Assembly: GCF_034531255.1 (NCBI RefSeq)
Contig: NZ_JAVRBM010000030.1
Coordinates: 8,047 to 29,655 of the forward strand
DNA length: 21,609 nucleotides
Direction: 5' to 3'
Origin: Nostoc sp. ChiQUE01b
GTDB taxonomy: Bacteria > Cyanobacteriota > Cyanobacteriia > Cyanobacteriales > Nostocaceae
In this document: one piece after another, positions 3,064 to 20,373 of the stretch
Numbering within the stretch: the first letter of the stretch is position 1
Layout of the letters: every line of letters starts with the position of its first letter
Made by a program: the position numbers and the translations under genes
Notes under the pieces: model-generated
The model's database searches: none
Seen by the model: only the letters and a program-made list of their open reading frames with translations
Told to the model about the DNA's origin: nothing

Positions 3064-6000
3064 ATCGCTGTTTCAACGCTGAAATCTCCTGCATGAATTG
3101 CACACCAGAATGTTCAGCCAGCTTGAGAAAATGCTCTACATCTTTCTCCCGCACTGTTGTCCGCTCAAGGCTATCGCCGTTGACTTGCAATATTGTCTCT
3201 GCTTTGCTGCCTGTTCGTGCTTGCACTGTCAGTTTGTCCCCTTGCTGCGTGCATTCATAGCGCCCATGCTTCAGGCTAACCCCGCCCCAGATGTCCAATT
3301 GCGCCTCTGTTGCCAGCAAGAGCTGCACCGTCTCCAATAATACCTGTCCCCGTTCCTGGTACGGGCGATACTTCGCCAAATCTCCTTCAATAATGTTTTG
3401 AAGATAGCGCGATAGGGGTGCGGACTCCTGGGCATTCTCCAACGTTTGCATGTGATGTCTACGTTCTGATTCCAGTCCCAAGTCACGAACTGCTTGGAGC
3501 CAGGTTTGTATGCTGAGGGCATCAGATGCTTCCGCATTCTCTTCGTTAGCTTCTGGCAGAGAATTTTCAGGGATAGTTTCACTCTGCGACGATATGCTGA
3601 ATGTTAAGGCAAGTGCAGGATTTTCGAGAGATTGTTCCTCACTATCTGTGAAGGTAAACTCCCTCTCTCCCCTGGTTTGTGAATTTAGGGATAACTGCTT
3701 CCGCATCGCCTCCCCAAATCCTTGATGCAGCAGGTTTCTGGAAAACGTGGTGGCATAAGAGCGATCGCAGTTTCGCCATTCCCTACCCAACGAAGTGACG
3801 GCTGTTTCAGCCAGGGTTAAGCCGCCATCCGTGTCGATGGTGAAAATCATCTCACTATTAATAAAAGTATCGCCGTTCTCGGTCAGATAATGCGTCAGGT
3901 ATAACCGATCATCATGCCGCTCGATGACCAGGGGGATAAACGGCTCATTCTCGATTTTGTGATGAAACTCTTCTCCCTTCATCACCGTCGAAGATAATCC
4001 CCCTCGTTCCAGCAGTTTGGCGATATTCTTCTCTGGCGTACCCCGTTGTGCCGCAGGAGGAGTGATCGCTGACGGCAGCTTGTTCACCGAATCAGTGCTG
4101 ATACCTGACTCCATATCTGGTTCAGGAACAGGAGAAGGAGTTTCAGGGACAGCTACAGGCATTTCAGCCACTTCAGCAAACGTCCCCAACGCTATCCCCA
4201 GCATCGCCCGTGCTGCTTCCCTCTGCTCATAGGCAGCCAGCGCATAATCCCGCTCTCGCATCACGAACGCCAGCACCGCTTCCAGTGCCTCTCCATCCAC
4301 CAGACATTCCATGCGATCGCCCACCGAATAAAACTCCGCTCCAGCAGCTTCTAGCAATTCCTCATCCAGATAATATTTACCGCCAGCATCTTTCGCTTTC
4401 GGTGTTTGTAGCAGGAAGGTTCCCCCCTGCCCTAGCTTGATGGTCAAGTGCTTATCCGCCGTTTTAAGCTGTCCGCCCTGTTCTGTCAGGAATCGCCACG
4501 CATCCTCAACGGTTGGCATGGTCACGCCCATTTGCTCCAGGGCAGCTTCGGCATCAAACCCCCGCGAGGTCAACAAGCCCTGACGAATGTTACCGTGGGC
4601 ATCCGTAAAATTGACCATCTTGCCGGGAAACTTCTCCCACGCCCGCAGCAGGTTCCCCGTGAACATCTGCCGTTTCTCCCGCGTCCGCGTTTGGTAATAG
4701 TCGAACAGATCGTAAACCGCTGTTCCCTCTGGCGTTTTATCAGTCCCTTCCACACGAACCGCATTCTCTTTGCCCGTGTTCACCTGCGACAGCGGCAGGG
4801 ATAGCTCCTGCACGGAATCTGCCAGCAACAACCGTATCTCCCAGGAGGACGGCGCAACAGGGTTGGCAGCAACACCCGTATGGTTTACACCCGCCACCAC
4901 CCCATAAAACACATCGTTTTTCTCGGTCGTCAGACACACCGCCTGCCCCACTGTCAACGCCTGCATCATATGCGTCACCTGATAAAACTGGTTATCAATG
5001 GTGGAGCTTCTGTCAGCCGGGACTTGCAATTTATACTGCCTTGCCTGCTCCTCAAGTGCTTCGATATCCGCCTTGACTTGCTCACAGGAGGCTTGCTGAA
5101 TGCTGCTTTGTGTCGCATCAGTTACCGTATCGGGCGGCGATAATCCTAAAGAGTCATGCAGCTTTTGCACCACCATTAGCGTTGTGTAGGGCTTGCGCGG
5201 CGTTTTCACATCAACAATTTCCGCATACACCGCCCCTGTAAACGGTGAATGACTGTTGGCATCGCTAGGCAACACCTCCATCCGTGCCAAGGTTTTAGCA
5301 TCGAGGTTGAGGGTGCTGGCTTCCAGAATCGATTCGCCCATTGCCTCCTGTGTCGCTACGAACTCCGTATATTTTTTCTCAATCAGGTCGTAAAGGGCTG
5401 ACTGCTCGGCAATAGGTAACAGGGGAATCCTGCCCGTCACCTTGCGGATTGAATCACCAGCGGATAAAGTGCCATGTAAAGGGTTGTGTGATGCTTGCAG
5501 TGGGTAATCAAGTCTTTCGTGAATATCAGGGTAAGCTTTCATCAGTTCGATGATTACCCGATCGCCGTACTCATTCATAAAATCCGGTACATTCTCCAAT
5601 GAAAACGCCCCAGACCGGGCGGCTGTGGTATTGGCATTGAGCGATGCCATCTTCCGCGCCAGCACTGCTCCCGGACGCTTTTCCGCTGGGATGTCTGCCA
5701 TCAGCAGTGTGAAATTGGGTGGCACAACCTGCCCAGTACGATGCACCCGCCCTAACATTTGCATGAACGAATTAATATCTGCTTCGGGTTGCGCCACAAT
5801 CATGTGCCGCTGCCGTTGGTCACGAAACCGCTCTGAGGCATGAAGCGAAATCCCTGTGGAACCAGAGCGGTTGAGCAGAATCACGTCAAGCTGTCCATCG
5901 TTAAAAGCGTTAACCGTCCGCACTGCCGCTTCTTTGCTACGCTCTGCGTTGCCGCGTCGCTGGTAAACCGTTGTGCCATCAGCGTTGTAGAGCGCGATAT

Positions 6001-9000
6001 GCTCCCGCCCCGTCACTTCCCCTACCCGATAACCCTCCTGGTTCAGCCGAAACGTAATGTAATCAATGGGACTGACCGGAATCTGGCTGAAATCAGTCTC
6101 GTTAATCAAATCCTGGATGGCGTGATATCTCGCTGTTGCTGCTATGCCCAATTCTTCATCAGTCAGTCTGTGGCAGGTCTTTTCACCATACGGATTCCCT
6201 AAAATGACATCACGGCTACGGTCTAAATACCGATGTAAGATTGTGCCGAAATCAGCATCCAGGGTATCGCCTGGGCGCAAATCTAGCATCTCAGCTTGAC
6301 GACCAATCATACTGCCCATTGTGTTTGACAGTGCCAGCACTGGCTTCTCCGGTTCTGGCTGACGCAGCAGGGATAGGGATTGCTGTACTGTTTCTTCGGC
6401 TTTGAGGGCAAACAACATCTGGTCAACAATGTTGTGCATCAGACTGGTAAAATTGGTACTGGTTGCCCCAGCCGCCCCTGTAGCATTATCCCCAAACGCC
6501 CGTTTTGCTTCGGCTTTCAGGTCTTTGTCCATTCCCTCAACCACATCCTGCTTCAGGCGGTCAAACTCCATAATCTCTGCCATAATCAGCGAGATGTTTT
6601 CCGCAACATCATGGTTGACCGGGGCAACAACCGAGTCAAACCGTACCCCTTCAAACGACCGCTCCCGGCGAATATATTGCCCTGATTCGGTCAACATTGA
6701 GGCGAGAGTTTGCTGCAACGGTACACCCCCCGATGCCACCAGTTCGGTCAGGTTCGCCATATTACTGAGGGCAAGCCGCATATCAGTACGAGAGTACAAA
6801 TCCATTACTTGCGGATTCTTGGCATAAGTGGCACTCGAATACACCACCCCAAGCGATCGCTGCACCAATTCCCGCACAAAATCCGCCCGGTTGGAAGCAC
6901 CCGCCGACTTGGCATTTTTATTGTTGGAGCCTCCCGCCTCATGGCTCTCATCCAGAATCACCAAGCTGTTGGGGGCAAACTGGCGCAGAAAATCCCGGCG
7001 ATAGGGTTCCTGCCTTTTGACCGTTTGCAATTGGGAGTACGTTGTAAAAATGGCATCGTACCTGCCTAAGTCTCCATCTGCCTGTATGCGTTTGAGTACC
7101 TGATGATGCTGTTTAGTGTTGGTTGACAGGGTGCGTCCATCTGGCAGCGGTAAGGTTAAATCGGGATTCGTGACCAACGGATTAAACCTCGGCATCCCGA
7201 TATCTTCTAAATCCCGAATCATGTCTGCATAGAGAGCTGGGTCTTTGGTCACAAAAATAGGTGTCCGCCCCGTAACATTCGCATAGCGAATCATCCCTGC
7301 TACAACGCGCCCCTTCCCAATCCCCGTTTGATCACCCAGGATAAACCCGCCACCTTTCTCCAGATTGGACACGGCCAGGGCAATCGCGTCCACCTGTTCC
7401 GCACTGAAGTGCTGGTGCAACTCCTCTGTTGTCCCATAAGCAAGGCGGTCAGCGACATACGCATCCAGTTCTGCCACCTGGCGCTCTAACTTCAACAGGG
7501 CTTGGTTAACACCCGTTTGCATGTTGGCGGGAACCAGTGTACCGATTGCCCGTGCCCCACTTTTGGGGTGATAGGGAAGCTGTTTCGGTTGTTCTACCGT
7601 AGTAGCAGGTCGATTGTTCCTATCAGCCACTCCTCCAGTGTCGGCTGTACGTCCGGCGTGTTGAATTTCCACAGTAGTCGTTCTATCCGTTCGCTGTTCG
7701 TTTCCACCTGCACCGGAAACGAGATTGCCAGAAATTGCAGCCGCAATTCGATAATGTCGCTCTCGAACACCAGGAACCGCGCCCAAGCTGTCTGCCATTC
7801 CTGTATCCCTTGGGGCGTGTGGGGTATCTCCGGTAACATCGGTCTGCGCTGATAAATTGAGAACGGGCGCGTCCTCACTAGGAGCATCTCGTGTGTCTCC
7901 TCTACCGACGCTTCCGCCTCCTCCATCCACATCTCGATCAGCCATTCCAAGCGACGGCACAGCAGTTCCTGATAACGGTTCTGACTCAACTGGGTTTCGT
8001 TCGCTGGTACTAGCACTGTGAAAACTCGCTCCTCCTCCAGGGGCGACCACACGTTCGGATCGGGAAAGTACGTCATCGAGAAATTCTCCCAGTTCATCAA
8101 AAGTTCGGTACAGACGCGGTACGTCCGCCGCAGGTAAGCGTCGGTCTGACTTTCCCCGACCATCAATCACGATCATATCGATGGGAAAGCCTGCCCCTTG
8201 TTTCCGGTAGAGATTGCCAAAAATCGAAAAATGGTCAACCACGTTGAAGTTTTGATACAGGGTATAGTAAAAACCCCGGCTCTCCCGGCTGTTATAGCGA
8301 TCGCTGCGGATATCTTCATCCATGCCCAGCTTGCCGCCCAAAATTAGCACCGCTCTGCCATCCGGCTTCATCGCTGACAACCCTTGCAGGGCAATGGCAT
8401 GGTCAATCTGGGTAGTCTGGAACTTGCCAAACTGAAACTGCTTTGGTCTTCCTGGTGATGCATCCACCGTCCCAAACGGGGGATTCATAATCACAACATC
8501 GTGCAGCTGACTCGGTGTAAAACGGCTGGCATCTGCTTCTGTCACCGTATAGCCCTGCTCCCGCAAATCCCCTGCCCGTGCCGGGTTTAACTCGTTGACC
8601 GTCACCTTGTCCGGGGTTGCTCCCAGCAACAACGCTCCATGCCCCGCACTCGGTTCATACACTGTTGTATCTGAATTGACACCAGCCAAGACAGAGGCAA
8701 GATAGGCAATGGGTAACGGGGTGCTGTACGCTTGCTGGGCAACACTGGTGCTAGAGCGCACATTTAGGGCTGGCTGGCGATTGTGCAATTCAACAAGCTG
8801 GCGATAAGCATCCTGCGGTGTCGCTGCTCCCGTTACAATATCCTGAGCAACACGAACTAAGGCGGATTCGACAACTTCATCCACCTGTTTGGCGAGTGGC
8901 GAACCAGGCGATACATATTCCCCAATGTATGGCACAGCAAACGCTCTCGCCTCGGTAATCGTAGAAAATCTACCTCCCGATGCAAAATGTTCCGTCAGGG

Positions 9001-9195: not shown

Positions 9196-9579
9196 TCAAG
9201 GCAAAGTTGGATGAATCATGCCATTTGCTGCAAGACTGTTAGCAATCCAATAAACACCTGTGTGATGAAATTTTCCTTGTTCTGCTAATTGTTGAACTTC
9301 TGCAATAATCACATCACAGTCTTCATCGCTTAATACAGCCCCATAAACACCACAGTCTCGACGGACAAAATCACGGGTTACATAATCAATCTCTCTCCTA
9401 TCAGTAATATTGATGACTGAATATAATTCATCAATTTCTGCTGAAGAAAGAGGAGAAACATTTATAAAATGGTCAGGAAATATTTCTGCCATATCCATAT
9501 TCTCTGCTTGTTGTTGAAACAACCGTAAAGACGCAAGGATGGTGGCTATTTCCCTTTTACGAAGTTGGTTTGTATTCAT
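9196..9579 (-). CDS. Hypothetical protein (127 aa from the internal ATG)
   Basis: The track ORF is 9196..9669. ATG at 9579 (MNTNQLRKRE..) is preceded by GAGGCGAGG and avoids overlap with the upstream gene. I recognised no family. Confidence 0.55.
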   Translation of the reverse strand: MNTNQLRKREIATILASLRLFQQQAENMDMAEIFPDHFINVSPLSSAEIDELYSVINITDRREIDYVTRDFVRRDCGVYGAVLSDEDCDVIIAEVQQLAEQGKFHHTGVYWIANSLAANGMIHPTLP

Positions 9580-9604
9580 TGTGAAAACCTCGCCTCGATA
9601 TTTT

Positions 9605-9850
9605 TCAAAAAGGAACATCGAGTGCTGACAGCAGCGCAAAGCACTCATCAAAAGAGCCAAAAAACACATTGTCTGCTTGATAACCCTCGATTATTTTTAA
9701 GACTTTCTCTTCCGTTTGGATGAGCGAGAAAACCTCTTTTTCATCAGTGTCATCAACATCAGGCATTTCATAGCTGCAAGCGGGACATTCTATGGGAGAA
9801 TCCGCTAAATCAAATTCATGTCTACAAAAAGGACATATCATGGCATTCAA
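9605..9850 (-). CDS. Small zinc-ribbon protein (81 aa)
   Basis: The N-terminus has CPFC..(13 aa)..CPAC, followed by an acidic tail. It is co-oriented and tightly packed with its neighbours, and overlaps the upstream gene by 29 nt. Confidence 0.55.
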   Translation of the reverse strand: MNAMICPFCRHEFDLADSPIECPACSYEMPDVDDTDEKEVFSLIQTEEKVLKIIEGYQADNVFFGSFDECFALLSALDVPF

Positions 9851-10241
9851 AAAGGTTTAATTGTCTGCTTGAAATCTCCTGTGGATGCTCCTTCTCGATA
9901 GCGTCATAGGCTAACGTCAGGCTGATAATCATGTCGTTCCACCATGCGGGAGGGGTTTTTGTGGTTTTGACCTCTTCCACATAGAAATTGATATGCTCAA
10001 AAGATGCCAATAAAGCTGTATAACAATCAAAAGCCAGATGGTTTAAACGCTCTATAATACGTCTTTTGGTCGCTGCTTTTGCTGTTATCCAATAAATACT
10101 ATGCCAGGTGTCATCGTATTGTTTGGCATAAGAAATGGCTAAGGCTAGTTGCTCTTTAGCAGAGGTAATAAAGGTATTATCATCCTCTAATTCTTTCAAT
10201 TGATCGAGAGCGCAAGCCATACAACAATAAGAAGAGTGCAT
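9822..10241 (-). CDS. Hypothetical helical protein (139 aa)
   Basis: The ORF is the second gene of a four-gene minus-strand cluster. I recognised no family. Confidence 0.5.
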   Translation of the reverse strand: MHSSYCCMACALDQLKELEDDNTFITSAKEQLALAISYAKQYDDTWHSIYWITAKAATKRRIIERLNHLAFDCYTALLASFEHINFYVEEVKTTKTPPAWWNDMIISLTLAYDAIEKEHPQEISSRQLNLFECHDMSFL

Positions 10242-10262
10242 TTTGAACGTCTCCTCTTCTCA

Positions 10263-10715
10263 TCAAGAAAAATTAGTCTTGTCCTCCCTTAAAACTTCTT
10301 CCAGTGCCCGTTTAACTGCTGTCTCATGGTCTGGAAGCTGTTTTTTGATAAGAGAGATAACCCACTGTGTTCCTTTCCCTCTTCCAGTGAGTTGAATTGA
10401 TGAATCAATAACGCCAACGTCTTGAAGATGAGAGGCAACTTTCCTGGCTTTTTCAAGGGTTAAATGCCTGACAGTTTCTATGGCATCAGGTTGAATATGT
10501 CCAGCATTAGGTATTTCCTGAACGTCTTTTTCTTCTTCGGTTCTTATTTCGGCTTCCTGTGGTTTTTTAACAGGTTCAACAAAGGACACGGGTTTTTGTA
10601 CTGTTGAAATGGCAGAACCAGCAGAAGCAGGCGTATAAAAAAGCCAGCAGTAGAACGAAAAAATAATTACAAAAAGTTCTACAGCGAAGCCAGAACCAGT
10701 TTCGATATGTGACAT
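10263..10715 (-). CDS. Hypothetical membrane-anchored protein (150 aa from the internal ATG)
   Basis: ATG at 10715 is preceded by GAGGAA. The hydrophobic segment FAVELFVIIFSFYCWLFYTPA looks like one N-terminal transmembrane helix, followed by a charged linker and a C-terminal globular part. The track ORF extends to 10742. Confidence 0.55.
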   Translation of the reverse strand: MSHIETGSGFAVELFVIIFSFYCWLFYTPASAGSAISTVQKPVSFVEPVKKPQEAEIRTEEEKDVQEIPNAGHIQPDAIETVRHLTLEKARKVASHLQDVGVIDSSIQLTGRGKGTQWVISLIKKQLPDHETAVKRALEEVLREDKTNFS

Positions 10716-10796
10716 GGTGCATTCCTCAATATTTTGAATCACGATACTGAAGCGATGAAAACAAAATTGAACCCAAAATATCGTGTTATTGGGTAT

Positions 10797-10830: not shown

Positions 10831-11108
10831 AGTACGCTGAAAAAGAATCAAGCGAATTTTAAGAAACTGTGCGCTTATTTAATGAGAAATACAATTTCTG
10901 ATTAACACAAATAAATCTTGATATTTTTATCTCTTAGTTGAATGGTATTTATGATATATTTCTGCTTTCTTAGGTATAGAAAACGGAGCAATAATTTTAT
11001 CTTTTCTTCTTTGGCTTTTTGTGGTTTTTTCGTGAGCAGTTCTGCCTATCAGGAGTCAGTTTGCCCACGAAAATAACTCCTCTTCCTGTCCTGCTTCAAC
11101 AGGTGAGA

Positions 11109-11930
11109 ATGCTTCGGAAAAAAATTGTCCAGCTTGAGGCGGAAGGGTTGTGTCTGTTCGGCGCATGGTTGGAAAAGAACCGTCCAGGCAGTGTCCGAAG
11201 CCGCAGGCAGGTGTACTGGCAGCTTCGTTGCCGCACGGGCACATTACCCAATCGCAAGCAGTTGATGCATCTGGACAAAGAACAAGTCCCTATCTACCAA
11301 CAGGCAATTGCGAGAGGCAGGAAGATAAAGGCTTGCCAGCGACAGATACGGGATACCGAGCGTCGCATAGAAAGGCTGGTAGCGCGAGCCGAGCAACGCG
11401 GGATTGTGGTGCGTAATGTGTTGGGCGACCCCGATGCTTCGCCAGAATGGTACACACCTCCTGGCTATATTTCCCTTGTCCGCCAAGTGTTAGGGCATAT
11501 TGACCTTGACCCTGCAAGCAACAGCATGGCACAGGCGTGGATTCAGGCAGATGTTTACTACACGAAACAAGATGACGGTTTGCGGCAGCCGTGGTTTGGG
11601 CGCGTCTGGTGCAACCCACCCTACGGCAGTCCCGAAACCCGCTTGATGGCGCAACAGTTTCTGGAGAAAGCGATCGCGGCATATCAGGATGGTATGGTTG
11701 TGGCGGTAATCCTGCTCCTCAACCGCACAGGGGCAGCATGGTACAAGACTTTGCAACAACAGGTCACTGCTCTGTGCGAAGTGACGAAGCGGATAGCTTT
11801 CTTAGATGAAAATGGCGTACCCCAACCATCGCCCCGTTACTACAGCGACTTTTTATACCTGGGTCAAGAGCCAGAGCGGTTTCTGGATATCTTTAGCAGC
11901 ATTGGCACGGTACGGCAACTTGCACCCTAA
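11109..11930 (+). CDS. Phage-type DNA N6-adenine methyltransferase (Dam family, PF05869-like) with an N-terminal extension of about 95 aa
   Basis: The sequence PEWYTPPGYISLVRQVLGHIDLDPASN..DGLRQPWFGRVWCNPPYG..VILLLNRTGAAWY..KRIAFLD matches the EWYTP / DLDP / NPPY / R-x-x-F layout of this family. ATG 11109 is preceded by AGGTGAGA. The track start, TTG 11019, is an alternative. Confidence 0.8.
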   Translation: MLRKKIVQLEAEGLCLFGAWLEKNRPGSVRSRRQVYWQLRCRTGTLPNRKQLMHLDKEQVPIYQQAIARGRKIKACQRQIRDTERRIERLVARAEQRGIVVRNVLGDPDASPEWYTPPGYISLVRQVLGHIDLDPASNSMAQAWIQADVYYTKQDDGLRQPWFGRVWCNPPYGSPETRLMAQQFLEKAIAAYQDGMVVAVILLLNRTGAAWYKTLQQQVTALCEVTKRIAFLDENGVPQPSPRYYSDFLYLGQEPERFLDIFSSIGTVRQLAP

Positions 11931-12005
11931 TTTTTAAACGCCCTCTCCCACACTCTTAAAGAAAAGGGTGAAAATAGGGCGCGGACAGCCGCGCAAGAAT
12001 GGATG

Positions 12006-12164
12006 TGCCAGAGGCGCGGGCTGGGTCAAGGACAAGCCCTGCGGGTGCGCGGGGGGTCTCCCCAATTTTTTGCTTTCAGTATGTGACAAACACCGTGTCG
12101 CAAAAAACCGGGAGATACCCCTCCCCCCGCGCATCCTTGACCCAACCCTTCATCGCCCCTGGCA
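12006..12164 (-). other. Extended imperfect GC-rich hairpin (candidate single-strand initiation, single-strand promoter or secondary oriT-like element)
   Basis: The nested complementary arms are:
- 12006-12016 with 12154-12164 (10 of 11 bp).
- 12022-12032 with 12134-12144 (11 of 11 bp).
- 12046-12056 with 12123-12133 (11 of 11 bp).
- 12058-12062 with 12110-12114 (5 of 5 bp).
- 12066-12073 with 12100-12107 (8 of 8 bp).
Only the left arm has a bulge, 13 nt at 12033-12045. The element lies in the 276-nt non-coding spacer directly upstream of ardA. Confidence 0.6.
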
Positions 12165-12206
12165 AGCACAGAAGCATGAGCGAGAAAAAAAGAAAGGAAC
12201 TTAGCC

Positions 12207-12749
12207 ATGCTGAAGACGAAAAACAATAACAAAGCAGACCCGCAAATCTACATAGCTTGCCTTGCTGCTTATAATGCAGGGTATCTGCATGGGGAATGGG
12301 TGGATGCTACCCAGGATATTGACATCATCAGGAAAGAGATTAGCAGAATTCTAGAAACGTCTCCCGTAGCAGATGCTGAAGAGTACGCGATCCATGATTA
12401 TGATGAATTCTACAGTGCAGAGAGCATACTAGGCGAATATCCCAACCTTGAAGAAGTGGTTAAAGCCGCTGAATTTATTGCCGAACATGGAGAATTAGCC
12501 GGAAAGCTAATTGCTCACTATGGTGATCTTACGGAAGCCCTCGAAGCAATGGAAGAACGTTATCACGGGTGTTACCGAAGCCTAGCCGACTATGCTGAAC
12601 AATTCACTGAAGATACCTCAAGTGACATCCCTAAGCACCTGCAATACTACATCGACTACAAAAAAATGGCGCGGGACTGGGAATATAGCGGCGACATTTT
12701 CACCATAGAACTGGGTTTTGAAGAAGTCCACGTTTTTTCAAATCACTAA
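12207..12749 (+). CDS. ardA: Antirestriction protein ArdA (DNA-mimic inhibitor of type I restriction)
   Basis: The sequence PQIYIACLAAYNAGYLHGEWVD..EEYAIHDYDEF..YYIDYKKMARDW..VHVF matches the ArdA (PF07275) signature. AAAGGAA lies upstream of the ATG. The protein is acidic. Confidence 0.85.
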   Translation: MLKTKNNNKADPQIYIACLAAYNAGYLHGEWVDATQDIDIIRKEISRILETSPVADAEEYAIHDYDEFYSAESILGEYPNLEEVVKAAEFIAEHGELAGKLIAHYGDLTEALEAMEERYHGCYRSLADYAEQFTEDTSSDIPKHLQYYIDYKKMARDWEYSGDIFTIELGFEEVHVFSNH

Positions 12750-12828
12750 CAAGAATGGGGCTGCCAATCACCACAACCGCAGCCCCACCTCCTAAACATC
12801 ACTACAAATTTTTAGGAAGTCTCCACAC

Positions 12829-13311
12829 ATGAAAACCTTTCCCAATTTTCAGACCTATAAAATGTTTCGCCTGTCCAATTTTGGCATGAGAACCGCCCGT
12901 TATGCCTTCAGCCGAATGAAAGCAGAACAGACTATAACAGCATTACCCTATCCCACTGCATCACTGGAGCATAACACTTGCTTTGTATGGAAAGGATTTA
13001 CCATTCACATTCAGGTTTTTTATGACGAGGATGCAGATTACTCCTGGCTTGGTCAATTCTCCGACACGCCAAAAGAAGATGCTATTCCCCATGAGCCAGG
13101 AAACCACCGTACCTACAATTATTTCAACCGAGCTTGCACGATTACTGAGTATCAAGAAGAGTACAGCCGATTGGGGTATGCACAGCATGAAAGCTGGCTT
13201 TTAGCTAAAAAAGCAGTGCAAGAAGACTACAAGCGGATGCTTCACTATAACGAATCTGGAAGCCCCTACATTGAATTAACGGCAAGCAAAGAGAACATCA
13301 CCCCTTGGTGA
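12829..13311 (+). CDS. Hypothetical protein, apparently split by a frameshift (the coding signal continues in another frame to 13432)
   Basis: The 160-aa ORF has AGGAAG upstream of the ATG. After TGA 13309-13311, the frame shifted by +1 stays open from 13280 to TAA 13430-13432. That frame reads GEATISIADWDYVQETIIDDDLVEAAIADAEQNLKQLCTCL and has no start codon of its own. Confidence 0.55.
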   Translation: MKTFPNFQTYKMFRLSNFGMRTARYAFSRMKAEQTITALPYPTASLEHNTCFVWKGFTIHIQVFYDEDADYSWLGQFSDTPKEDAIPHEPGNHRTYNYFNRACTITEYQEEYSRLGYAQHESWLLAKKAVQEDYKRMLHYNESGSPYIELTASKENITPW

Positions 13312-13474: not shown

Positions 13475-13807
13475 ATGACTAAAATCACCTCCCCCACCAA
13501 ACGTGAAATCCTGGAACAAGAAATTTTATCTGTTTTCAGAACATTTGACAGCAACGCTTCTCCCCTGCTGGTCAAAGAGATTGCCGAATGCGCCATAAAC
13601 TTCTTTTATGACCCGGATAAAGCTATAGCAATTGTTTGGAGTATAGAAGATATAAATGCTATCCGAGAAGACCTTAATGATGAACAAGCATTTATGGTTT
13701 TGGAAGATGCCTATAACAATTATGTCGAAGATAGTCCTATAACGTGGAAAGTTTTGAAATTCGTAGCTGATGATTTGTTTCCACGGGAAGAAGCAGAAGA
13801 AACATGA
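13475..13807 (+). CDS. Small, strongly acidic hypothetical protein (110 aa)
   Basis: AAAGGAA lies upstream of the ATG. By my count there are about 24 D/E against 10 K/R. I recognised no family. Confidence 0.6.
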   Translation: MTKITSPTKREILEQEILSVFRTFDSNASPLLVKEIAECAINFFYDPDKAIAIVWSIEDINAIREDLNDEQAFMVLEDAYNNYVEDSPITWKVLKFVADDLFPREEAEET

Positions 13808-13930: not shown

Positions 13931-14431
13931 ATGACTTTAACTCATAAACCCTTCTCAGTACAAATATTTTTAATTGATGCAAACCCCGATGGAATGCTAA
14001 CAGCCGAAATTCCATTTCAATGGACAGGTCATGTGTTATCTTTTCCAAGAAAAGACATCAAACGAGTTTTGGAACGTGAAGAAGCCCAGCAGCCTGGCAT
14101 TTATCTATTGGTTGGGGAGAGAGAAGAACAAAAAACACTTTATGTAGGTAAGGGCGGTGAACTCTTAGAGCATATTAAAGAGCAAGAACAACAAGAATGG
14201 TGGTCAACGGGGGTATTGTTGATCAATCAAGAATATCCCTTGAGTATGTTGTATCTATCCTACCTACAAGACCAACTTAGAAAAAAAGCAGAGAACGGAA
14301 ACAAGGTTATTTTAGCTAACCCTCTTGACGTTGAACCATTAAGACTAGACGAGTCGGCAACGGTTGCAATGGAAGGATTTTTAGATAAATTTATCTTTGT
14401 CCTTTTGGTATTAAACTTTAAATTCTTTTAG
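13931..14431 (+). CDS. GIY-YIG-like N-terminal module protein, truncated (the usual C-terminal DUF4357 part is missing)
   Basis: The sequence FSVQIFLIDANPDGMLTAEIPFQWTGHVLSFPRKDI..PGIYLLVGE..TLYVGKG..WW..YLSYLQDQL..MEGFLDKFIFVLLVLNF follows the layout of the family that is normally about 290 aa with a DUF4357 C-terminus. Here the ORF stops right after the ..VL..F segment. Confidence 0.55.
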   Translation: MTLTHKPFSVQIFLIDANPDGMLTAEIPFQWTGHVLSFPRKDIKRVLEREEAQQPGIYLLVGEREEQKTLYVGKGGELLEHIKEQEQQEWWSTGVLLINQEYPLSMLYLSYLQDQLRKKAENGNKVILANPLDVEPLRLDESATVAMEGFLDKFIFVLLVLNFKFF

Positions 14432-14469: not shown

Positions 14470-14512
14470 AAGGCTGTTCCATCACCGGAGTAGCCTTTTG
14501 TGTTTCTTCTTT
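14470..14512 (+). terminator. Candidate intrinsic terminator for the plus-strand block
   Basis: AAGGCTGTTCC (14470-14480) pairs with GGAGTAGCCTT (14487-14497) at 9 of 11 positions. The stem is followed by TTGTGTTTCTTCTTTGTGATTTTT. It lies between convergent genes. Confidence 0.45.
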
Positions 14513-14555: not shown

Positions 14556-15200
14556 TCATTCTTCCTGCTCTTCCTGTATCATCATCTCGTTATCGTGATT
14601 TGTATGACAGGTTATCTTCAGCCCACCCACCCCCATGACATTTGACCCGCATTTCGAGCAAGTGTATTTAAAACGGGTTTTGGTACGAGCTTGCCAAGTG
14701 TAATGGTGCTGGAGTGGAAAAAATTTCTCTTGGGCTTTGGGACAGGCCAGAGCATATTTTCCATTCTCGATAATTGTGTGTTTGACGTGCTGCCCAAACA
14801 TTTTTTCACAGGACAGCCCCATCTCCGCCATTTTCAATGTCCATTCCTTGTTACAATACCCTGGATGTTCTGGAGGCGTGCCATACGTATACTGCCATAA
14901 ACAAATCATCTGGCGTACTAGTATTTGAAAAATCAGGTCATCCCCACGCTTGAGCAGTTCAGGGTTCAAGCTAATTTCATCAACAGTAACGGAACTACCC
15001 CGATTCCAGCTTTTGTAGCGAAAGAAGCCTAGAGATTTACCTCTGGCATTGAAGTTCAGGATGCAAGGGGGAAGAATGCCATCGAACAACACCCTATTGA
15101 AGTAGTCGAAGGCATCCTGGTAACTGAGCCACAATTCCAGATGCGGTTTGGTGAAAAGAGGTGTGCCTGTAGCTACGGGCAGGGTTGGTATTGCTTGCAT
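14556..15200 (-). CDS. SprT-like domain protein with the metalloprotease motif lost
   Basis: The sequence FDYFNRVLFDGILPPCILNF..LGFF..ISLNP..ILVRQMICLWQ..GYCNKEWTLKMAEMGL..YTCSKCGSNVMGVGGLKITC is colinear with plasmid SprT-like proteins (..LVHEMVHLWQ..GYHNKEW..YxCxCG..WGKP). VRQMIC (14918-14901) stands where VHEMVH is expected. Confidence 0.75.
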   Translation of the reverse strand: MQAIPTLPVATGTPLFTKPHLELWLSYQDAFDYFNRVLFDGILPPCILNFNARGKSLGFFRYKSWNRGSSVTVDEISLNPELLKRGDDLIFQILVRQMICLWQYTYGTPPEHPGYCNKEWTLKMAEMGLSCEKMFGQHVKHTIIENGKYALACPKAQEKFFPLQHHYTWQARTKTRFKYTCSKCGSNVMGVGGLKITCHTNHDNEMMIQEEQEE

Positions 15201-15359
15201 GTCTGTGCTTCCCTGATTGATGTTACTTGATTGCCAAACCAGGGACTTTTTGTATGCTGTATCACAGCCTACTTCAGTGAATAGTTTTATACAGGGTAAG
15301 GCAATGAAGTTTCTTCCAAAAAGTTATCAGTCTTTTTTCTCTTGCTTAAATAAAATTTT

Positions 15360-15376
15360 TTACATAAATTATGTAA
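15360..15376. promoter_or_regulatory. 17-bp perfect palindrome (candidate operator)
   Basis: The sequence is TTACATAA-A-TTATGTAA. It lies in the AT-rich spacer between the TraD-like gene and the SprT-like gene. Confidence 0.35.
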
Positions 15377-15498
15377 AATCCAACTTGTATCCGTTTCGCC
15401 ACAAATTAACAGAATTATGGTGTACACCATAAAAACAGAAAGCGGATACCTCTCCCCCAATGGTTTCTTCTTTCCTTCGCAGTAAAATTTCTTTCCTT

Positions 15499-16152
15499 TT
15501 AAATCCCCTCAAACATCTCTTTCATTTTGTCCTGGGATATTTCGGTTAGAGTTTTAGGCTTATCTGCAACTGGCTGTTTAGAAATAACTTGCATCGTCTC
15601 TTGGGTTTCTGATTCCTGCTCCACACGCTGAGGTGTTACCTTCTGCTGTTGTGCTGCCCTGTCCCTTATGTCCTGATTTTCTGTTTTCTCCTCCCGTAAT
15701 CCGTCCTCACTTGCCAGTGTCTGAAGTGCCTCCTGGTAGTATTGGGCCTCCTCCTGCTGGCGTTTAACTGAGTTGGTGCTGTGCTGTCCTTTCTTCCCGT
15801 TAGTCTGTTCATCTTGAAATTGCCGGGGTTGGGTCGTAGTTGCAGACACAGACAGTGTTTTCTTCTCTGGTGTTACTGTCTCGCGGGGAGGAAGTCCAAA
15901 CAGATCGCGATCGCGGTCAATGAGGTACTGGTCTAATCCCTGCATTACCATGTCTTCAGTTAGCCACCCCCATTCCACCATCTTGTCGAGCAGGGCACCC
16001 TTGATGAACTTGCGGCGATTTTCGAGGCTGCGTTCTGCTTTCTGGACTTTGTGTTCTTGTTTACGTTCAGCACGTTTTTCCTGCTTGAGTTTTTCGCTAT
16101 AGTGGCTAAGAAGTTCATTGAGACGGTCAATGCGTTTGGCGCGGCTAGGCAT
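15499..16152 (-). CDS. Ti-plasmid TraD-like relaxosome accessory protein
   Basis: An N-terminal coiled-coil is followed by ENRRKFIKGALLDKMVEWGWLTEDMVMQGLDQYLIDRDRDLFGLPP. This matches the TraD (PF06412-like) pattern RKRDTRRKIllGAavl....L..dR.LFGL. The gene is divergent from the relaxase gene across the predicted oriT. The C-terminal half is Q/E-rich and low in complexity. Confidence 0.6.
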   Translation of the reverse strand: MPSRAKRIDRLNELLSHYSEKLKQEKRAERKQEHKVQKAERSLENRRKFIKGALLDKMVEWGWLTEDMVMQGLDQYLIDRDRDLFGLPPRETVTPEKKTLSVSATTTQPRQFQDEQTNGKKGQHSTNSVKRQQEEAQYYQEALQTLASEDGLREEKTENQDIRDRAAQQQKVTPQRVEQESETQETMQVISKQPVADKPKTLTEISQDKMKEMFEGI

Positions 16153-16289
16153 GAGGTGAGTCCTCCCGAAACAAGCGGCAGACGATGTATTTTTGATGAT
16201 GAACGGAGAATTACCGCGTTACGAAAACCACACGGTAGGGGACAGTTTGTTTTTTCCCAACAATAATTAGTGCGGTCAAAGAAAAGCGC

Positions 16290-16340
16290 GGCTGCCGCTG
16301 TGGTTGCGCGGACACGCGCTGGGGTTTGGGGGCGGCAGCC
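16290..16340. repeat. 9-bp inverted repeat on the leading side of the predicted nick
   Basis: GGCTGCCGC (16290-16298) pairs with GCGGCAGCC (16332-16340). The loop contains the small hairpin GCGCG-GACA-CGCGC (16306-16319). Confidence 0.6.
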
Positions 16341-16422
16341 TCCAAGCGCAGTTATACATTAAGGGACGCTTCGCTTTGAAAAGCTACCTCGCAAGCTCGG
16401 CATCTTTTCAACCCTTAATGTA
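16341..16422 (-). other. Predicted oriT core: inverted repeat plus a nick region like that of MOBQ-family (RSF1010/R1162-type) relaxases
   Basis: The outer repeat is a perfect 11 bp (16355-16365 / 16412-16422) and the inner repeat is 8 bp (16376-16383 / 16404-16411). On the minus strand the repeat is followed at once by TAACTGCGCTTGG, compared with TAAGTGCGCCCT in R1162/RSF1010. The element sits about 145 nt upstream of the relaxase gene and in the same relative orientation as in RSF1010. Confidence 0.6.
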
Positions 16423-16565
16423 CTGCGGCAAAGGGGGTTCCCCTCTGCACACCCCAACCACAGGGCGACTATTTGTATGTAACATAGTCGTAACACGTCT
16501 GTAGATTGTTTGTTGTAATTCGTTAAAATTTAGGAAAATTCCCACCCATTGGTGAATGAAATGGG

Positions 16566-19500
16566 GTGATAACAGTGCAAGCAGGGTATTTTCGGGAAGA
16601 AGTAAAAATTGTTTCACGCGGTAATAACCAGAACGTCATTCGCAAAGCTGCCTATGATGCAGGGGTACGACTGGTCGATACGCGGGACGGAAAAGTGTAT
16701 GACTTTTCTAACAAGCGGGATGTGTATAGTACTGAAATTCTCGCCCCCGCGAATGCTCCTGACTGGATGCTGGATCGGTCAAAACTGTGGAACGGTGTTG
16801 AACAAACAGAAGACAAATCCCGTCGCCGCGAGGATGCCCAGCTAGCACGGGAAGTGATTTTGTGTTTCCCGGCCTGCCTCAGCCATGATGAGAAAATCGC
16901 CGCTGCCCGTGAGTATGTGCAAAGCGAGTTTGTCTGGAAGGGCATGGTGGCAGATGTGGCGTACCATTTCAACGGCAAGACTGCCCATAACCCGCATGTC
17001 CATGTTCTCCTGACGATGCGCGATATTGATGGTAAGGGTTTTGGCAAAAAGAATCGCTCGTGGAACAACCCGGCAGAATGGAAAGACCGGGGCGAAAACA
17101 TTGAAGGGTGGCGCAAACGGTGGGCAGATACCCTCAACAAACACCTGGAGCGGGGTGGGTACGATGTACGGGTAGACCATCGCGGCAATCTGGCACAGAA
17201 TACTGACCGCCTGCCCCAAGTTCATGAAGGAGCCAATGTCACCAACCTGCGCCGTCGTCATGCCCAAAACCCGGACAAATATCAACAGAATTTTGATAAC
17301 AACCAGGTCATCCAGCACAACGAAGACATCAAGCACCGTAACGCCGAGCGGGAAGAATTGAAACAAACGATCAAAGCGTTGCAGTCAGAACTTCGCCACG
17401 AACACATCAAGCAAGCGCATTACGAGCAACGCCGGGAAGAACGTATTCTGAAACGGCAGATGCTGTCAGCGGAAAAAACTACCGAGCAAGACAACAGTCC
17501 TTATACTCTTGACCGTACCAGAACCTACGAAACAGCGACCAGCGTTGCCACCACCCTCACCCGGCAACTGCCAGCCTCGGAGTTTCATCAGCGAGCAAAC
17601 GCGCTTGTCACTTCTACCATGCAACACGATTCTTCTTCCACGCAAAATCCCTCTGCCATCCAGATTCGCAAAGATGACCCACCGGGCTGGAAACCGCGCA
17701 GACGCGAACCAAATGAGCCAACCGACTGGACATGGCGACTGGTACGCGAGCAACTGGAAGCAATGGGCGGTGATGGGAATTTTGAGATTGGCATTCTTGA
17801 CCGTGCCAGCGAAAAGATGCAGAACAAGACTTGGCACAAGCATGACATTCTTCGGGTTGATCCAGAAACCAAACGCACGCCGATTCTGAATTACCTCAAA
17901 TACGAAAACAGCCAGGGCAAGGATATTTTTATCCGTCTTGCCCCAACCAAAGACAGTAAACAACAAGGCTTGGTGCTGATTGATGATATCGACCCGGTAA
18001 CGGTGGAAGACCTGAAGGACAAGGGACTTGCCCCTGCCGTAGTCATCGAAACCTCATACAAGAATTGTCAAGCCTGGATACGGGCATCCAAAGAACCCAT
18101 CGAACGAGAAACTGCCACCCACCTGGCGAAACTGTTGACCAGAGAAGCGGGTGGCGACCCTGGTAGTGCTTCTTACCAGCATTACGGGCGGCTAGCTGGC
18201 TTCACGAACCGGAAACCTGACCATCAGGATATGTACACAGGCAGGCATCCGTATGTAAAACTGCTGTCAGCTTACGGAACAACCGCCCCAGAGGGGGAAC
18301 AGTGGCTGGCACAGGCGCAGTCAGCCGCAGCGATCGCACGGGAGAAACAACAAGAGGCAGCCGCCCTGCGTGACCAACGTGGCAACAGGGAAGCAACTGA
18401 ACAGGAGAAAGAGAAAGCCCTCAGAGCGTTCGAGAGCAGCTATGCTCATGCCTTGCGCCACTATGGCACAAACAAGGATTACAGCGCACGGGACTGGGCA
18501 CTGACCAAAAATCTTGCCAAACTGGGCTATAGTCAGGATGCCCTCCAGTACGCCCTGCGCTGGGGCAGTCCCGATCTGGAGAAGCGGAAACCGGGACATG
18601 AAGATGATTATGTCGCTCGCACGGTTGCCAAAGTGTTTGAGCATCCAGAGGTATTGCAGGCGATCGCTGAACGGGAAGCCAGACGAAAGAAACGAGAACA
18701 GGAGAATCAGCGCCAGCAACCATTACCCCTGACACAACCCACAGAAAAACAAAATCCTACAGAACCGCCATTCCCCTCCCCTACTCCCACACCATCATCG
18801 TCACAGGCAAAGGAGCAAACTGCTGTACCAGAACAATCCTTGACCGAAGACGAACGCCAGCTTATCGAAGCCATGAAATGGCTGAATGATGGCAAGGAAC
18901 GAGGTAAGCAGGAGCGGCGGCCGGAACACCATCTTCCTGTCCGTCCTCCTGCCAATGACAAACAATCCTATGCTGATAGAGCAGAGCCAGCAACCCCGAT
19001 GCCGGATACAGGGGAGAAAGTTTCATTGGACGCAGAGGCAGAGATCGTCAACACCTTCCCCACCCCTGCTTCATCCGACCAAAACCCCTCCTCGAAAGGG
19101 TCAGCCAAAGTTCCCGTGTACTGGAACAGTTATTATCGCTGGCTCCAGACACAGCAAATCGTCCGCCAGCCCAAACCTGCCAGAATTGACCCCGGTACTG
19201 CCTCCGCCAAACGACCCCCTGTCCCCATCAAAGCAGAACCCGTCGGCGACCTCGACGCTGACAGCGTTGCTGCCATCATTAATGCCGCGCACCAGTCGAA
19301 AAATGCGACCCAGCAACTTCGTACCGCCTCCTGGGCGTACCAGAACTTTAACCAGGACGAAGGACGCTGGAACAAGTGCAAACTGGAATATTTCCGGGAA
19401 CTGCACCGTGTTCACCAAGCCTTCGGACGTGATGAGGCATTAAACCCGAAAACTGATATCGAAATCGCCCTTAAGCTGCGGATGGCGGGGTTTTCCGTCA

Positions 19501-19865
19501 CGCAGATTTACCGCACTATCCAGGAAGCCAGCCCGGTTGCAACATCCCTACCGTCGCAAGAACATCAGTTTGTGTACTTGAAAAAAGCGATCCAACCCTA
19601 TCTGCAATCCTCCCAAACCCGGACAGTCGCCAATAATTTTCAGTACGAGCGGGAACGGCAGGCAAAGAGAACCATCACAGACCCCACCCAATTGCAAAAC
19701 CATCTTGCTGAACGCCGCCTGGAAAAACTCGGACTGGCAACCCCTGTGTCAACCCAAACCCAAAATCCAACACCCCAACAGACGCGATCGCCCCAGCCAC
19801 AACCTAACCATCGACCATCCCCTTTACCCCAGCACAAGCGTGATGATTGCGAGCCAGAGCGGTAA
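16566..19865 (+). CDS. MOBQ-family relaxase (MobA/MobL, TraA-like) fused to a RepB'-type primase domain, with a Pro/Gln-rich C-terminal region
   Basis: - Relaxase: SRGNNQNVIRKAAYDAG (Tyr codon at 16653-16655), LWNGVEQTE, DAQLAREVI, and the His triad HNPHVHVLLT (16986-17003).
- Primase-like segment, about 17750-18340: GKDIFIRLAP..GLVLIDDID..APAVVIETSYKNCQAWI..GGDPGSASYQHYGRLAGFTNRKP.
- Start: GTG 16566 or GTG 16575, the latter with GGGGTGA upstream. Confidence 0.9.
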   Translation: MITVQAGYFREEVKIVSRGNNQNVIRKAAYDAGVRLVDTRDGKVYDFSNKRDVYSTEILAPANAPDWMLDRSKLWNGVEQTEDKSRRREDAQLAREVILCFPACLSHDEKIAAAREYVQSEFVWKGMVADVAYHFNGKTAHNPHVHVLLTMRDIDGKGFGKKNRSWNNPAEWKDRGENIEGWRKRWADTLNKHLERGGYDVRVDHRGNLAQNTDRLPQVHEGANVTNLRRRHAQNPDKYQQNFDNNQVIQHNEDIKHRNAEREELKQTIKALQSELRHEHIKQAHYEQRREERILKRQMLSAEKTTEQDNSPYTLDRTRTYETATSVATTLTRQLPASEFHQRANALVTSTMQHDSSSTQNPSAIQIRKDDPPGWKPRRREPNEPTDWTWRLVREQLEAMGGDGNFEIGILDRASEKMQNKTWHKHDILRVDPETKRTPILNYLKYENSQGKDIFIRLAPTKDSKQQGLVLIDDIDPVTVEDLKDKGLAPAVVIETSYKNCQAWIRASKEPIERETATHLAKLLTREAGGDPGSASYQHYGRLAGFTNRKPDHQDMYTGRHPYVKLLSAYGTTAPEGEQWLAQAQSAAAIAREKQQEAAALRDQRGNREATEQEKEKALRAFESSYAHALRHYGTNKDYSARDWALTKNLAKLGYSQDALQYALRWGSPDLEKRKPGHEDDYVARTVAKVFEHPEVLQAIAEREARRKKREQENQRQQPLPLTQPTEKQNPTEPPFPSPTPTPSSSQAKEQTAVPEQSLTEDERQLIEAMKWLNDGKERGKQERRPEHHLPVRPPANDKQSYADRAEPATPMPDTGEKVSLDAEAEIVNTFPTPASSDQNPSSKGSAKVPVYWNSYYRWLQTQQIVRQPKPARIDPGTASAKRPPVPIKAEPVGDLDADSVAAIINAAHQSKNATQQLRTASWAYQNFNQDEGRWNKCKLEYFRELHRVHQAFGRDEALNPKTDIEIALKLRMAGFSVTQIYRTIQEASPVATSLPSQEHQFVYLKKAIQPYLQSSQTRTVANNFQYERERQAKRTITDPTQLQNHLAERRLEKLGLATPVSTQTQNPTPQQTRSPQPQPNHRPSPLPQHKRDDCEPER

Positions 19866-20045: not shown

Positions 20046-20098
20046 TTGTATGGGAGCATGGGATTGTGTCCCTCTCACCCCACCCTTCTTGTATGGGA
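20046..20098 (+). repeat. Direct repeat TTGTATGGGA, two copies, upstream of repA (weak iteron candidate)
   Basis: The identical 10-mers are at 20046-20055 and 20089-20098, both preceded by a T/C-rich run. Only two copies are visible. Confidence 0.3.
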
Positions 20099-20341: not shown

Positions 20342-20373
20342 ATCGTTTTGCTCTAAAAGTACGGAGACCTTCA

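Follow-up and report, generated by a model that had tools for sequence, protein, structure and literature searches.

A conserved, strand-specific hairpin ahead of ardA in the leading region of a Nostoc plasmid, a candidate single-stranded-DNA promoter

The 21,609-nucleotide (nt) stretch of DNA analysed here, called the window throughout, is part of a contig of 94 kb from Nostoc sp. ChiQUE01b and carries a 159-nt nested hairpin immediately upstream of the gene ardA. This hairpin is a conserved, structured and strand-specific cis-acting part of the leading region, and we consider it somewhat better than even, with a probability of roughly 0.55, that it is a single-stranded-DNA promoter of the Frpo/ssp kind which serves ardA and the three open reading frames (ORFs) behind it from the transferred minus strand. 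The preliminary description of this DNA had already suggested that a hairpin of the leading region could act in single-stranded form on the minus strand as it enters, and the covariation of its stems, the G:T bias of that strand and its constant orientation to the motif at the putative origin of transfer (oriT) all point the same way. The element combines what is expected of a single-stranded-DNA promoter, that is a stable stem-loop on the transferred strand, a place in the leading region and a position upstream of genes templated by the transferred strand, which would here be the minus strand.

The proposed course of events is as follows. Nicking at oriT upstream of mobA (~16347/16346, minus strand) would send the minus strand into the recipient with its 5' end first, and some 4.2 kb in the segment 12164-12006 would fold as a three-way junction, the 3' arm of which (complement of 12002-12032) would offer a promoter-like duplex or fork made up of TTGACC, a 16-nt spacer and, at the base of the stem, TGG-CACATC. 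Host RNA polymerase would then initiate near 12170-12178 with the incoming strand as template, ArdA and the products of the three small ORFs would be made ahead of the complementary strand, and double-stranding would remove both the fold and the promoter. Recognition by RNA polymerase and the place of the start are predictions, as is, by analogy with ssp1 and ssp2 of F, an extra role as a source of RNA primers or as an obstacle to synthesis of the complementary strand; the hairpin may also, in addition or instead, serve for priming or as a roadblock.

Structure of the hairpin

The fold consists of an outer stem (P1), two further stems (P2 and P3), a small hairpin set to one side and an apex (Table 1). 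The nested arms of the preliminary description were recovered at the same coordinates, including both perfect 11-base-pair helices, the one within P2 (12022-12032, TGGGTCAAGGA, with 12134-12144, TCCTTGACCCA) and the one that forms P3, and so were the 8-base-pair apical stem (TTTTTTGC, 12066-12073, with GCAAAAAA, 12100-12107), the TTGACC of the plus strand and the 42 nt that separate the end of the hairpin from the ATG of ardA at 12207. The region had also been called non-coding, in agreement with which only short, mutually overlapping ORFs cross it. A 13-nt bulge had been placed on the left arm at 12033-12045; these nucleotides are indeed extra, but they are not a loose bulge, they belong to a mini-hairpin of conserved sequence that turns the fold into a three-way junction. 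Read on the minus strand, the mini-hairpin ends in a GNA triloop with a C:G closing pair, and it is conserved in the window, in seven loci in all counting L011, L134, L137, L138, L051 and L079, and in about 100 metagenomic elements among the matches listed. Triloops of this kind are very stable in DNA. The mismatch within P2, C:A on the plus strand, corresponds to a G:T wobble on the minus strand, and the right arm has small internal loops at 12149-12153 (TTCAT) and at about 12117-12122.

Folded as DNA the minus strand, on which the activity had been proposed, is stable at -53.0 kcal/mol (z -6.2), the plus strand reaches -48.6 kcal/mol (z -5.3), and the plus strand folded as RNA reaches -89.4 kcal/mol (z -5.5), with 0 of 200 shuffles as good in each case. 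The hairpin has a GC content of 62%, against 48% for the window, and it is present there in one copy, with no second hairpin of comparable size in the 21.6 kb. Rfam gave no match at the gathering score for the window or for 17 loci of the family, and a scan of the window by E-value gave only sub-threshold matches to generic hairpins (microRNA precursors).

Terminator-like hairpins with T runs are found inside the apex at 12051-12073 (plus) and 12129-12100 (minus), and a further one lies just to the left of the hairpin at 11994-11979 (minus). The pattern of an intrinsic terminator fits the sub-hairpins 12051-12063 (plus) and 12129-12109 (minus), both of which occur only in the replaceable apex of the larger fold. 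These hairpins could shield ardA from transcription arriving from upstream and, in the duplex form, end transcription that runs leftward.

Selection on pairing and on one strand

The pairing is under selection. In an alignment of seven sequences RNAalifold gives 38 pairs, 20 of them with double changes, and pairing holds in 87.6% of cells compared with 70.8% in shuffles (0 of 500 reach the observed value) and 32-51% in slid controls; in an alignment of nine sequences 23 of the 37 consensus pairs have compensatory (double) changes. The departures from Watson-Crick pairing are not shared evenly between the strands, as transitions within consensus pairs give G:T 22 times on the minus strand and 7 times on the plus strand, the four best-conserved cyanobacterial copies of the seven-sequence alignment give 12 and 0, and a T:G wobble at the junction is kept in 7 of the 9 sequences. 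The same tendency is seen in the wider family described below, where 65 non-redundant members among the matches listed have 228 G:T-giving transitions on the minus strand versus 119 in a strand-neutral comparison of the arms, and the minus strand folds better in 57 of these 65, by a mean difference of -4.0 kcal/mol. Taken together, covariation and the G:T bias of the minus strand argue against both a plus-sense RNA and a duplex operator.

Homologues of the hairpin

Close relatives of this ArdA are scarce, and the informative homologues were reached through similarity of the relaxase. The searches yielded eight homologues of the hairpin, of which six belong to cyanobacterial plasmids that encode MobA-RepB' relaxases. 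The syntenic plasmid of Calothrix 336/3 (L011), whose relaxase is 39.5% identical, has a nested hairpin of 176 nt (8216-8391) that ends 41 nt before a DNA methylase gene (N6/N4) and that also folds better on the minus strand (-59.6 kcal/mol, z -5.9) than on the plus strand (-54.9 kcal/mol). In Scytonema tolypothrichoides (L137) and Aetokthonos hydrillicola (L138) the hairpin heads the equivalent operon, and two copies of the window type, which were missed with a regular expression and found with nhmmer, are present in L134, directly 5' of an ArdC-like gene, and in L136. The hairpin is also carried by two small metagenomic MOBQ replicons (L051 and L079), where it is 5' of small ORFs followed by a MobA of 389-391 amino acids without a primase domain.

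These copies have in common the outer GCCAG/CTGGC stem, a TCAAGG/CCTTGA stem, the CAAGCCC-loop-GGGTG mini-hairpin and a GC-rich inner stem, and they also share the leader CACA(A/G)AAGC...GGAAAGGA-N8-ATG. The apex is of one type (W) in the window, L134 and L136, and of a different but likewise conserved type (C) in L011, L137, L138 and L007. Within this long-apex subgroup the position at the head of the operon nearest oriT, the orientation relative to the nick motif and the leader are all constant, and this in plasmids with relaxases of only about 40% identity.

Among the relatives found through ArdA itself, the sequence of L004 (ArdA 87%) is cut within the right arm of a copy upstream of ArdA, with the right tail and leader kept, L007 (ArdA 73%) has a degenerate copy upstream of ArdA that folds no better than shuffles, and L005 (ArdA 75%) has an A/T-rich upstream region with no such hairpin. 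A metagenomic ardA (66% identical) lies between umuD/umuC-like genes and an SSB gene (L009:821-4660), a layout that matches the anti-defence islands described for leading regions.

Searches further afield returned little. With the 2.4-kb region as query, blastn against PLSDB gave one distant ardA only, and with the hairpin alone it gave chance matches only and no enterobacterial plasmid. A scan of genome contigs for ArdA gave only three proteobacterial loci (L001, L002 and L003); L002 has no hairpin upstream of ardA, and such upstream hairpins as these loci have are not homologous to that of the window. In L003, an unrelated ardA locus from Thiotrichales, a 156-nt nested hairpin (5814-5969, fold z -8.4) ends about 30 nt before ardA, and the 3' arm of the template strand carries TTGACG-16-TAAAAT opposite mismatches, the textbook Frpo-like layout; it is a good independent analogue of the window hairpin, which can be said less clearly of L001.

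The type-C apex motif (CCCAGCTTCCTCC...CGCTGCG..CGTGCAGCCGG) was also seen by blastn in the MOBQ/MPF_T plasmids pAgK84 of Agrobacterium (L012:4930-5140) and pSINME02 of Sinorhizobium (L013:4930-5110), where it is intergenic and 5' of small ORFs and a ParB-like gene; the elements there fold with several stems, not as a single hairpin, with z near 0. A likeness of the type-C apex to the primosome assembly site of ColE1/pBR322 was considered and rejected; it was marginal (best z 3.2) and was not reproduced in other copies.

Putative oriT and the transferred strand

The intergenic region before mobA contains an inverted repeat (GCGCAGTTATACATTAAGGG...CCCTTAATGTACTGC) and, on the minus strand, the motif AATGTATAACTGCGC, which is identical in the Calothrix 336/3 plasmid and has one variable base in four more related plasmids. 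The conserved asymmetric motif, AATGT(A/G)TAACTGCGC(T), resembles the nick region of RSF1010, GTAAGTGCG/CCCT. The comparison was made with an oriT-mobC-ssiA segment of RSF1010 that matches real IncQ plasmids at 100%; in it the strand bearing the inverted repeat and the nick motif points, 5' to 3', away from mobA, and the nick itself is placed as in the literature on R1162/RSF1010. By the RSF1010 rule and the asymmetry of the motif the minus strand of the window would be the one transferred, and it would therefore be the template of ardA. By the same analogy the nick would lie at about 16347/16346, the leading region would run towards lower coordinates and the hairpin would stand some 4.2 kb from the nick.

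The relation between motif and hairpin can be followed across the related plasmids. Four loci (the window, L011, L137 and L138) have the nick-like motif upstream of mobA, on the minus strand, and the hairpin module to its left, and in L134 and L136 the motif is on the plus strand downstream of mobA with the hairpin module inverted and to its right. In 6 of 6 plasmids, then, one and the same strand bears the motif, has the G:T-rich fold and serves as template for the gene that follows the hairpin. That the inversion in L134 and L136 preserves this relation is as predicted for an element of the transferred strand.

Promoter layout on the 3' arm

In elements of the Frpo type it is the 3' arm of the transferred strand that serves as non-template arm, and in the window this corresponds to the complement of the left arm. 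In its cautious remark on promoters the preliminary description had noted that no acceptable -10 hexamer follows the TTGACC of the plus strand; the 3' arm of the minus strand has TTGACC-16-CACATC, with a -10 element that is non-canonical. Judged from sequence, the promoter version appears stronger than had first been thought, and the first interpretation as a whole is partly supported. What is invariant in the nine copies is the TTG, the 16-nt spacing and an A at -11, that is TTGnnn-16 nt-(C/T)A; TGG stands just before the hexamer in the cyanobacterial copies, and a T at -7 is found in L051 and L079 only. The hexamer of the window straddles the stem base, so that positions -10 to -7 would be unpaired. 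From this geometry a start is predicted at about 12170-12178, inside the conserved CACAGAAGC.

The duplex form is a less promising source of ardA transcripts. No sigma70-like promoter was found on the plus strand between the Dam-like gene and ardA, and the left arm holds the terminator-like hairpin 12051-12063 with its T run on that strand, which makes expression of ardA from the duplex look unlikely.

Several observations weigh against the promoter. A T at -7 is normally essential, and CACATC, CACACA, CAAACA, CATTCC and TATACC are all without it; furthermore the -10 stretch is in several copies paired and not in a mismatch bubble. The position of the nick and the choice of the transferred strand rest on the analogy with RSF1010 and on motif conservation, and the G:T bias and the GNA/GNRA-type loops are equally compatible with a minus-sense RNA, for which no promoter is evident. 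The pattern used to collect the wider family itself imposed the -35-like CCTTGA on that sample, though not the -10, and the mixed contexts in which the core is found there, with IS110, IS21 and tandem integrases, may mean a role or a mobility outside the promoter model.

Comparison with known systems

In IncI1 plasmids and F, experiments have confirmed single-strand promoters ahead of ardA, klcA, ardB and methylase genes (PMC12672017; PMC9849209; 10.64898/2026.01.09.698686), and Frpo-like candidates are widespread in anti-defence islands (PMC11541004). They have been divided into class 1 (Frpo1/2 and ssi1-3), class 2 (ardA and klcA) and class 3 (the M.EcoGIX methylase), with starts mapped (PMC12672017).

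The Frpo/ssi1-3 (ssp1) elements of F and ColIb-P9 (PMC9849209; PMC11541004) are, like the window hairpin, long imperfect stem-loops of the transferred strand that stand in the leading region before early anti-defence or establishment genes. They share with it an asymmetric extra segment on the 3' arm, an A/T-rich stem in the apex and genes templated by the transferred strand, the last as we would expect for the window, and their -35/-10 boxes are on that arm and point towards the stem base, as the candidate boxes of the window would. However, Frpo elements are about 330 nt long compared with 159, have an A/T-rich UP-like stretch where the window has its conserved GNA mini-hairpin and three-way junction, and belong to plasmids with MOBF or MOBP relaxases, whereas the window comes from a cyanobacterium and has a MOBQ relaxase with a fused primase and a non-canonical candidate -10. 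Class 1 is delimited by a BLAST E-value of at most 1e-6 to five references (PMC11541004), and the window falls outside it; four of these five (ColIb Frpo1 and Frpo2, F ssiD and ssiE, that is all except Frpo3) gave by blastn-short against the window and the homologous loci only chance matches of 12-14 nt elsewhere.

Also comparable are the class 2 (ardA, klcA) and class 3 (M.EcoGIX) promoters of pESBL and ssp2 of F, which like the window hairpin are GC-rich, stand directly before anti-restriction or methylase genes, are unlike Frpo in sequence and may have extra roles as roadblocks or primer sources. The ssp2 element, with a GC content of 68.6%, is found upstream of ardB and a methylase gene and stalls complementary-strand synthesis (10.64898/2026.01.09.698686; PMC13478746). 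Their starts and roadblock are experimental. In PLSDB, which should include plasmids of IncF and IncI1, the window hairpin has no enterobacterial match by blastn.

Two kinds of priming site also invite comparison. The ssiA and ssiB sites of RSF1010/R1162 are tied to an IncQ-type MobA-RepB', have a small hairpin with a loop of the C-GAA-G type and act as single-stranded DNA, all of which recalls the window, but they are 40-nt sites inside oriV and not a 159-nt junction upstream of genes. The ssoA and ssoU elements of rolling-circle plasmids are orientation-specific folds of 150-200 nt in single-stranded DNA on which RNA polymerase recognises promoter-like boxes; they give a short primer RNA and not a messenger RNA, do not stand in front of genes and are defined by the RSB and CS-6 motifs, neither of which is evident in the window hairpin, though no search aimed at them was made. 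Most likely the window hairpin represents a sequence family that is new within a kind of promoter recognised only recently, in a phylum and a type of plasmid without prior description of one.

Alternative explanations

The folded minus strand might be a priming signal (ssi) only, recognised by the RepB'-type primase or by a primase or primosome of the host and without any role as a promoter. The relaxase of the window is fused to such a primase, four of the closest homologous hairpins are on plasmids with relaxase-primase fusions, the C:G-closed GNA triloop of the mini-hairpin has its like in the ssiA hairpin of RSF1010, and Frpo elements have also been reported to yield primers (Masai and Arai 1997, as cited in PMC12672017). 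Against this, the local score of the hairpin with RSF1010 ssiA (14-18) is that of shuffles (15.8 +/- 2.8), in L051 and L079 the hairpin is found beside a MobA that has no primase, and the ssiA-like stretch of the window is elsewhere, at 20060-20100 on the minus strand. The earlier proposal of priming by RepB' is for these reasons not upheld, and as a priming site needs neither a fixed distance of 41-45 nt to a start codon nor a conserved leader, we consider priming alone to be rather unlikely. An element of the established plasmid that works on the plus strand as RNA or in the duplex, be it a structured 5' leader, a site of processing or a terminator/insulator that separates ardA from the Dam-like gene, seems unlikely as well. 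The plus-sense RNA would be very stable, as the fold given above indicates, its mini-hairpin loops are of the UNCG type, and there are terminator-like hairpins with T runs on both strands of the apex; yet what departs from Watson-Crick pairing is G:T when read on the minus strand and A:C when read on the plus strand (22 versus 7, and 228 versus 119), with one such wobble in 7 of 9 sequences, and the apex with its terminator-like parts has been exchanged in L011, L137 and L138 for an unrelated conserved one whilst the stems were kept. Nor was a promoter found that would feed such a leader, or an Rfam family to which it would belong.

It would seem distinctly improbable that the hairpin is a mobile or repeated palindromic module, of the kind of miniature inverted-repeat transposable elements or repetitive extragenic palindromes, or an insertion target of IS110 type, with no dedicated role for ardA. 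The core is indeed found in more than 120 metagenome contigs, many of the matches being at contig ends, with 1-4 copies on Bradyrhizobium plasmids, and among the matches listed it is often 23-450 nt from the gene ends of IS110, IS21 or tandem integrases, but the long-apex subgroup keeps its position, orientation and leader across the diverged relaxases, and the window has a single copy. A double-stranded operator or cruciform at which a regulator encoded by the plasmid would repress ardA is suggested by the long near-perfect palindrome immediately before the gene and by the small genes of unknown function nearby; it is a very remote prospect given that in most stems the compensatory changes keep the pairing and not the sequence, and that an asymmetric mini-hairpin and strand-specific wobbles would be meaningless for a duplex operator.

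The wider short-apex family

Relatives with a short apex were collected from metagenomes with the pattern TCAAGGNCAAGCCCN{3,4}GGGTG, which at least 120 contigs matched, and in about 85-90% of the matches listed CCTTGAC follows 8-24 nt after the mini-hairpin with complementary flanks. The core shared with the window is TCAAGG-N-CAAGCCC-loop-GGGTG...CCTTGAC. On the strand equivalent to the window minus strand the loops of the mini-hairpin are GNA triloops closed by C:G, and on the opposite strand they are UNCG. Among the matches listed the hexamer yAnnCT is repeatedly found at a distance of 16 nt from TTGACN, and only on the arm that corresponds to the window minus strand (CACGCT, CATGCT, CACCCT, TACGCT, TATACT), and TAnnnT at a spacer of 15-20 nt is seen in 21 of 107 on that arm versus 1 of 83 on the other.

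The neighbourhood of these elements is heterogeneous. Pfam scans of the surrounding ORFs found them rich in insertion sequences and with no clear signature of a leading region, and calling of the first ORF downstream was too noisy in this high-GC DNA. Neighbouring genes among the matches listed include rve (11), IS110 (8), IstB (5) and phage integrase (8); the end of an IS110-like transposase gene is 23-250 nt from the element in about 11 loci, in one subgroup the end of the istB of IS21 is at 350-450 nt, and another is flanked by tandem integrases. This association may reflect the targeting of hairpins by IS110-type elements or the mobility of the module. It is a speculative and on balance doubtful suggestion that the window hairpin belongs to a very large, undescribed superfamily of portable single-strand promoter or establishment three-way junctions, in mobile elements of cyanobacteria, alphaproteobacteria and other high-GC soil bacteria, that are a preferred neighbour or target of IS110, IS21 and tandem integrases; such a superfamily would be defined by the TCAAGG/CCTTGAC stem, the C-GNA-G mini-hairpin and a variable apex, with promoter boxes complete on one strand only.

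Gene context

The other features of the window are listed in Table 1. The Sbno-like helicase, which may be a polyvalent establishment protein, has a counterpart of 2132 amino acids beside a methylase gene in the Brasilonema locus (L136:89-6487). The relaxase-primase ORF starts with GTG at 16566 and encodes 1099 amino acids, whereas the public annotation has only a RepB-domain protein of 644 amino acids (P0121, 59% coverage); this could reflect an internal start, as for RepB' of RSF1010, or a split in the annotation. The ssiA-like stretch TTTCCCATACAAGAAGGGTGGGG lies between the primase gene and repA, near inverted repeats at 20172-20357, and includes the exact 11-mer GAAGGGTGGGG at 20078-20088, which is not conserved in the related plasmids compared; it may be the cognate priming site of RepB' or part of oriV.

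Table 1. Features of the window, with promoter-like boxes, putative oriT sites and short-apex elements of related loci
Feature	Position	Strand	Remarks
Sbno-like helicase, 1981 amino acids	3062-9007	-	AAA_34, Helicase_C_4, DUF6908
Small ORFs	9196-10742	-	
Dam-like methylase	11019-11930	+	
Candidate -10, CACATC	12002-12007	-	16 nt after TTGACC, at stem base, TGG before
Nested hairpin/three-way junction, 159 nt	12006-12164	- (probable functional strand)	Fold z, covariation, G:T bias
Outer stem P1, left arm TGCCAGAGGCG	12006-12016		Pairs with 12154-12164, 10 of 11 pairs; GCCAG/CTGGC kept in cyanobacterial copies
Stem P2, left arm GGGCTGGGTCAAGGA	12018-12032		Minus-strand complement of 12024-12029 is the -35-like TTGACC
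Side mini-hairpin	12033-12047		Plus strand CAAGCCC-TGC-GGGTG; minus strand CACCC-GCA-GGGCTTG
Stem P3, left arm TGCGCGGGGGG	12046-12056		Perfect 11-base-pair helix with 12123-12133; compensatory changes
Apex, type W	12057-12122		TCTCCC/GGGAGA stem, TTTTTTGC/GCAAAAAA stem, 26-nt loop
Stem P3, right arm CCCCCCGCGCA	12123-12133		Pairs with 12046-12056
Stem P2, right arm TCCTTGACCCAACCC	12134-12148		Contains plus-strand TTGACC, 12137-12142
Outer stem P1, right arm CGCCCCTGGCA	12154-12164		Pairs with 12006-12016
Conserved leader	12165-12206	+	CACAGAAGC (~12170-12178) and Shine-Dalgarno-like AAAGGAA (12193-12199); from alignments
ardA	12207-12749	+	PF07275, E 5e-42; first gene of operon
Three small ORFs after ardA	12829-13311, 13475-13807, 13931-14431	+	
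Terminator-like hairpin closing the ardA operon	14470-14497	+	
Two ORFs	14556-16152	-	
Intergenic region before mobA	16152-16566		
Putative oriT	16346-16420	-	Inverted repeat with nick-like motif AATGTATAACTGCGC; putative nick-site sequence AATGTATAACTGCGCTTGG
MobA/MobL relaxase fused to RepB'-type primase	16566-19865	+	
RepA_C initiator	20272-21534	+	
Putative oriT, L011	~11805-11880		
Putative oriT, L137	~8811		
Putative oriT, L138	~8823		
Putative oriT, L134	~12700-12790		
Putative oriT, L136	~12730-12815		
Promoter-like boxes, window			TTGACC, 16-nt spacer, CACATC
Promoter-like boxes, L134			TTGAAT, 16-nt spacer, CATTCC
Promoter-like boxes, L136			TTGCGC, 16-nt spacer, TATACC
Promoter-like boxes, L011			TTGAAA, 16-nt spacer, CAAACA
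Promoter-like boxes, L137			TTGTGA, 16-nt spacer, CACACA
Promoter-like boxes, L138			TTGCAA, 16-nt spacer, CACACA
Promoter-like boxes, L007			TTGCAC, 16-nt spacer, TACGCC
Promoter-like boxes, L051			TTGACT, 16-nt spacer, TACGGT
Promoter-like boxes, L079			TTGACT, 16-nt spacer, TACTGT
Short-apex relatives	In L014-L133, e.g. L027:1259-1340, L044, L128, L015, L038, L095; L014, L023, L067; L047, L054		
Short-apex relative	L139:7001-7166		

Implications

Experimental single-strand promoters have so far come almost only from enterobacterial plasmids of the IncF and IncI groups. If the window hairpin is such a promoter, the strategy of expressing anti-defence genes before the second strand is made extends to the MOBQ plasmids of cyanobacteria, with relatives in plasmids of Agrobacterium, Sinorhizobium and Bradyrhizobium. 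It would provide a signature by which leading regions, and new anti-defence genes, could be searched for in phyla that have been little studied, and a natural test of how much of a -10 element RNA polymerase needs on a template that is already folded. A possible use would be better early anti-restriction expression from vectors conjugated into cyanobacteria.

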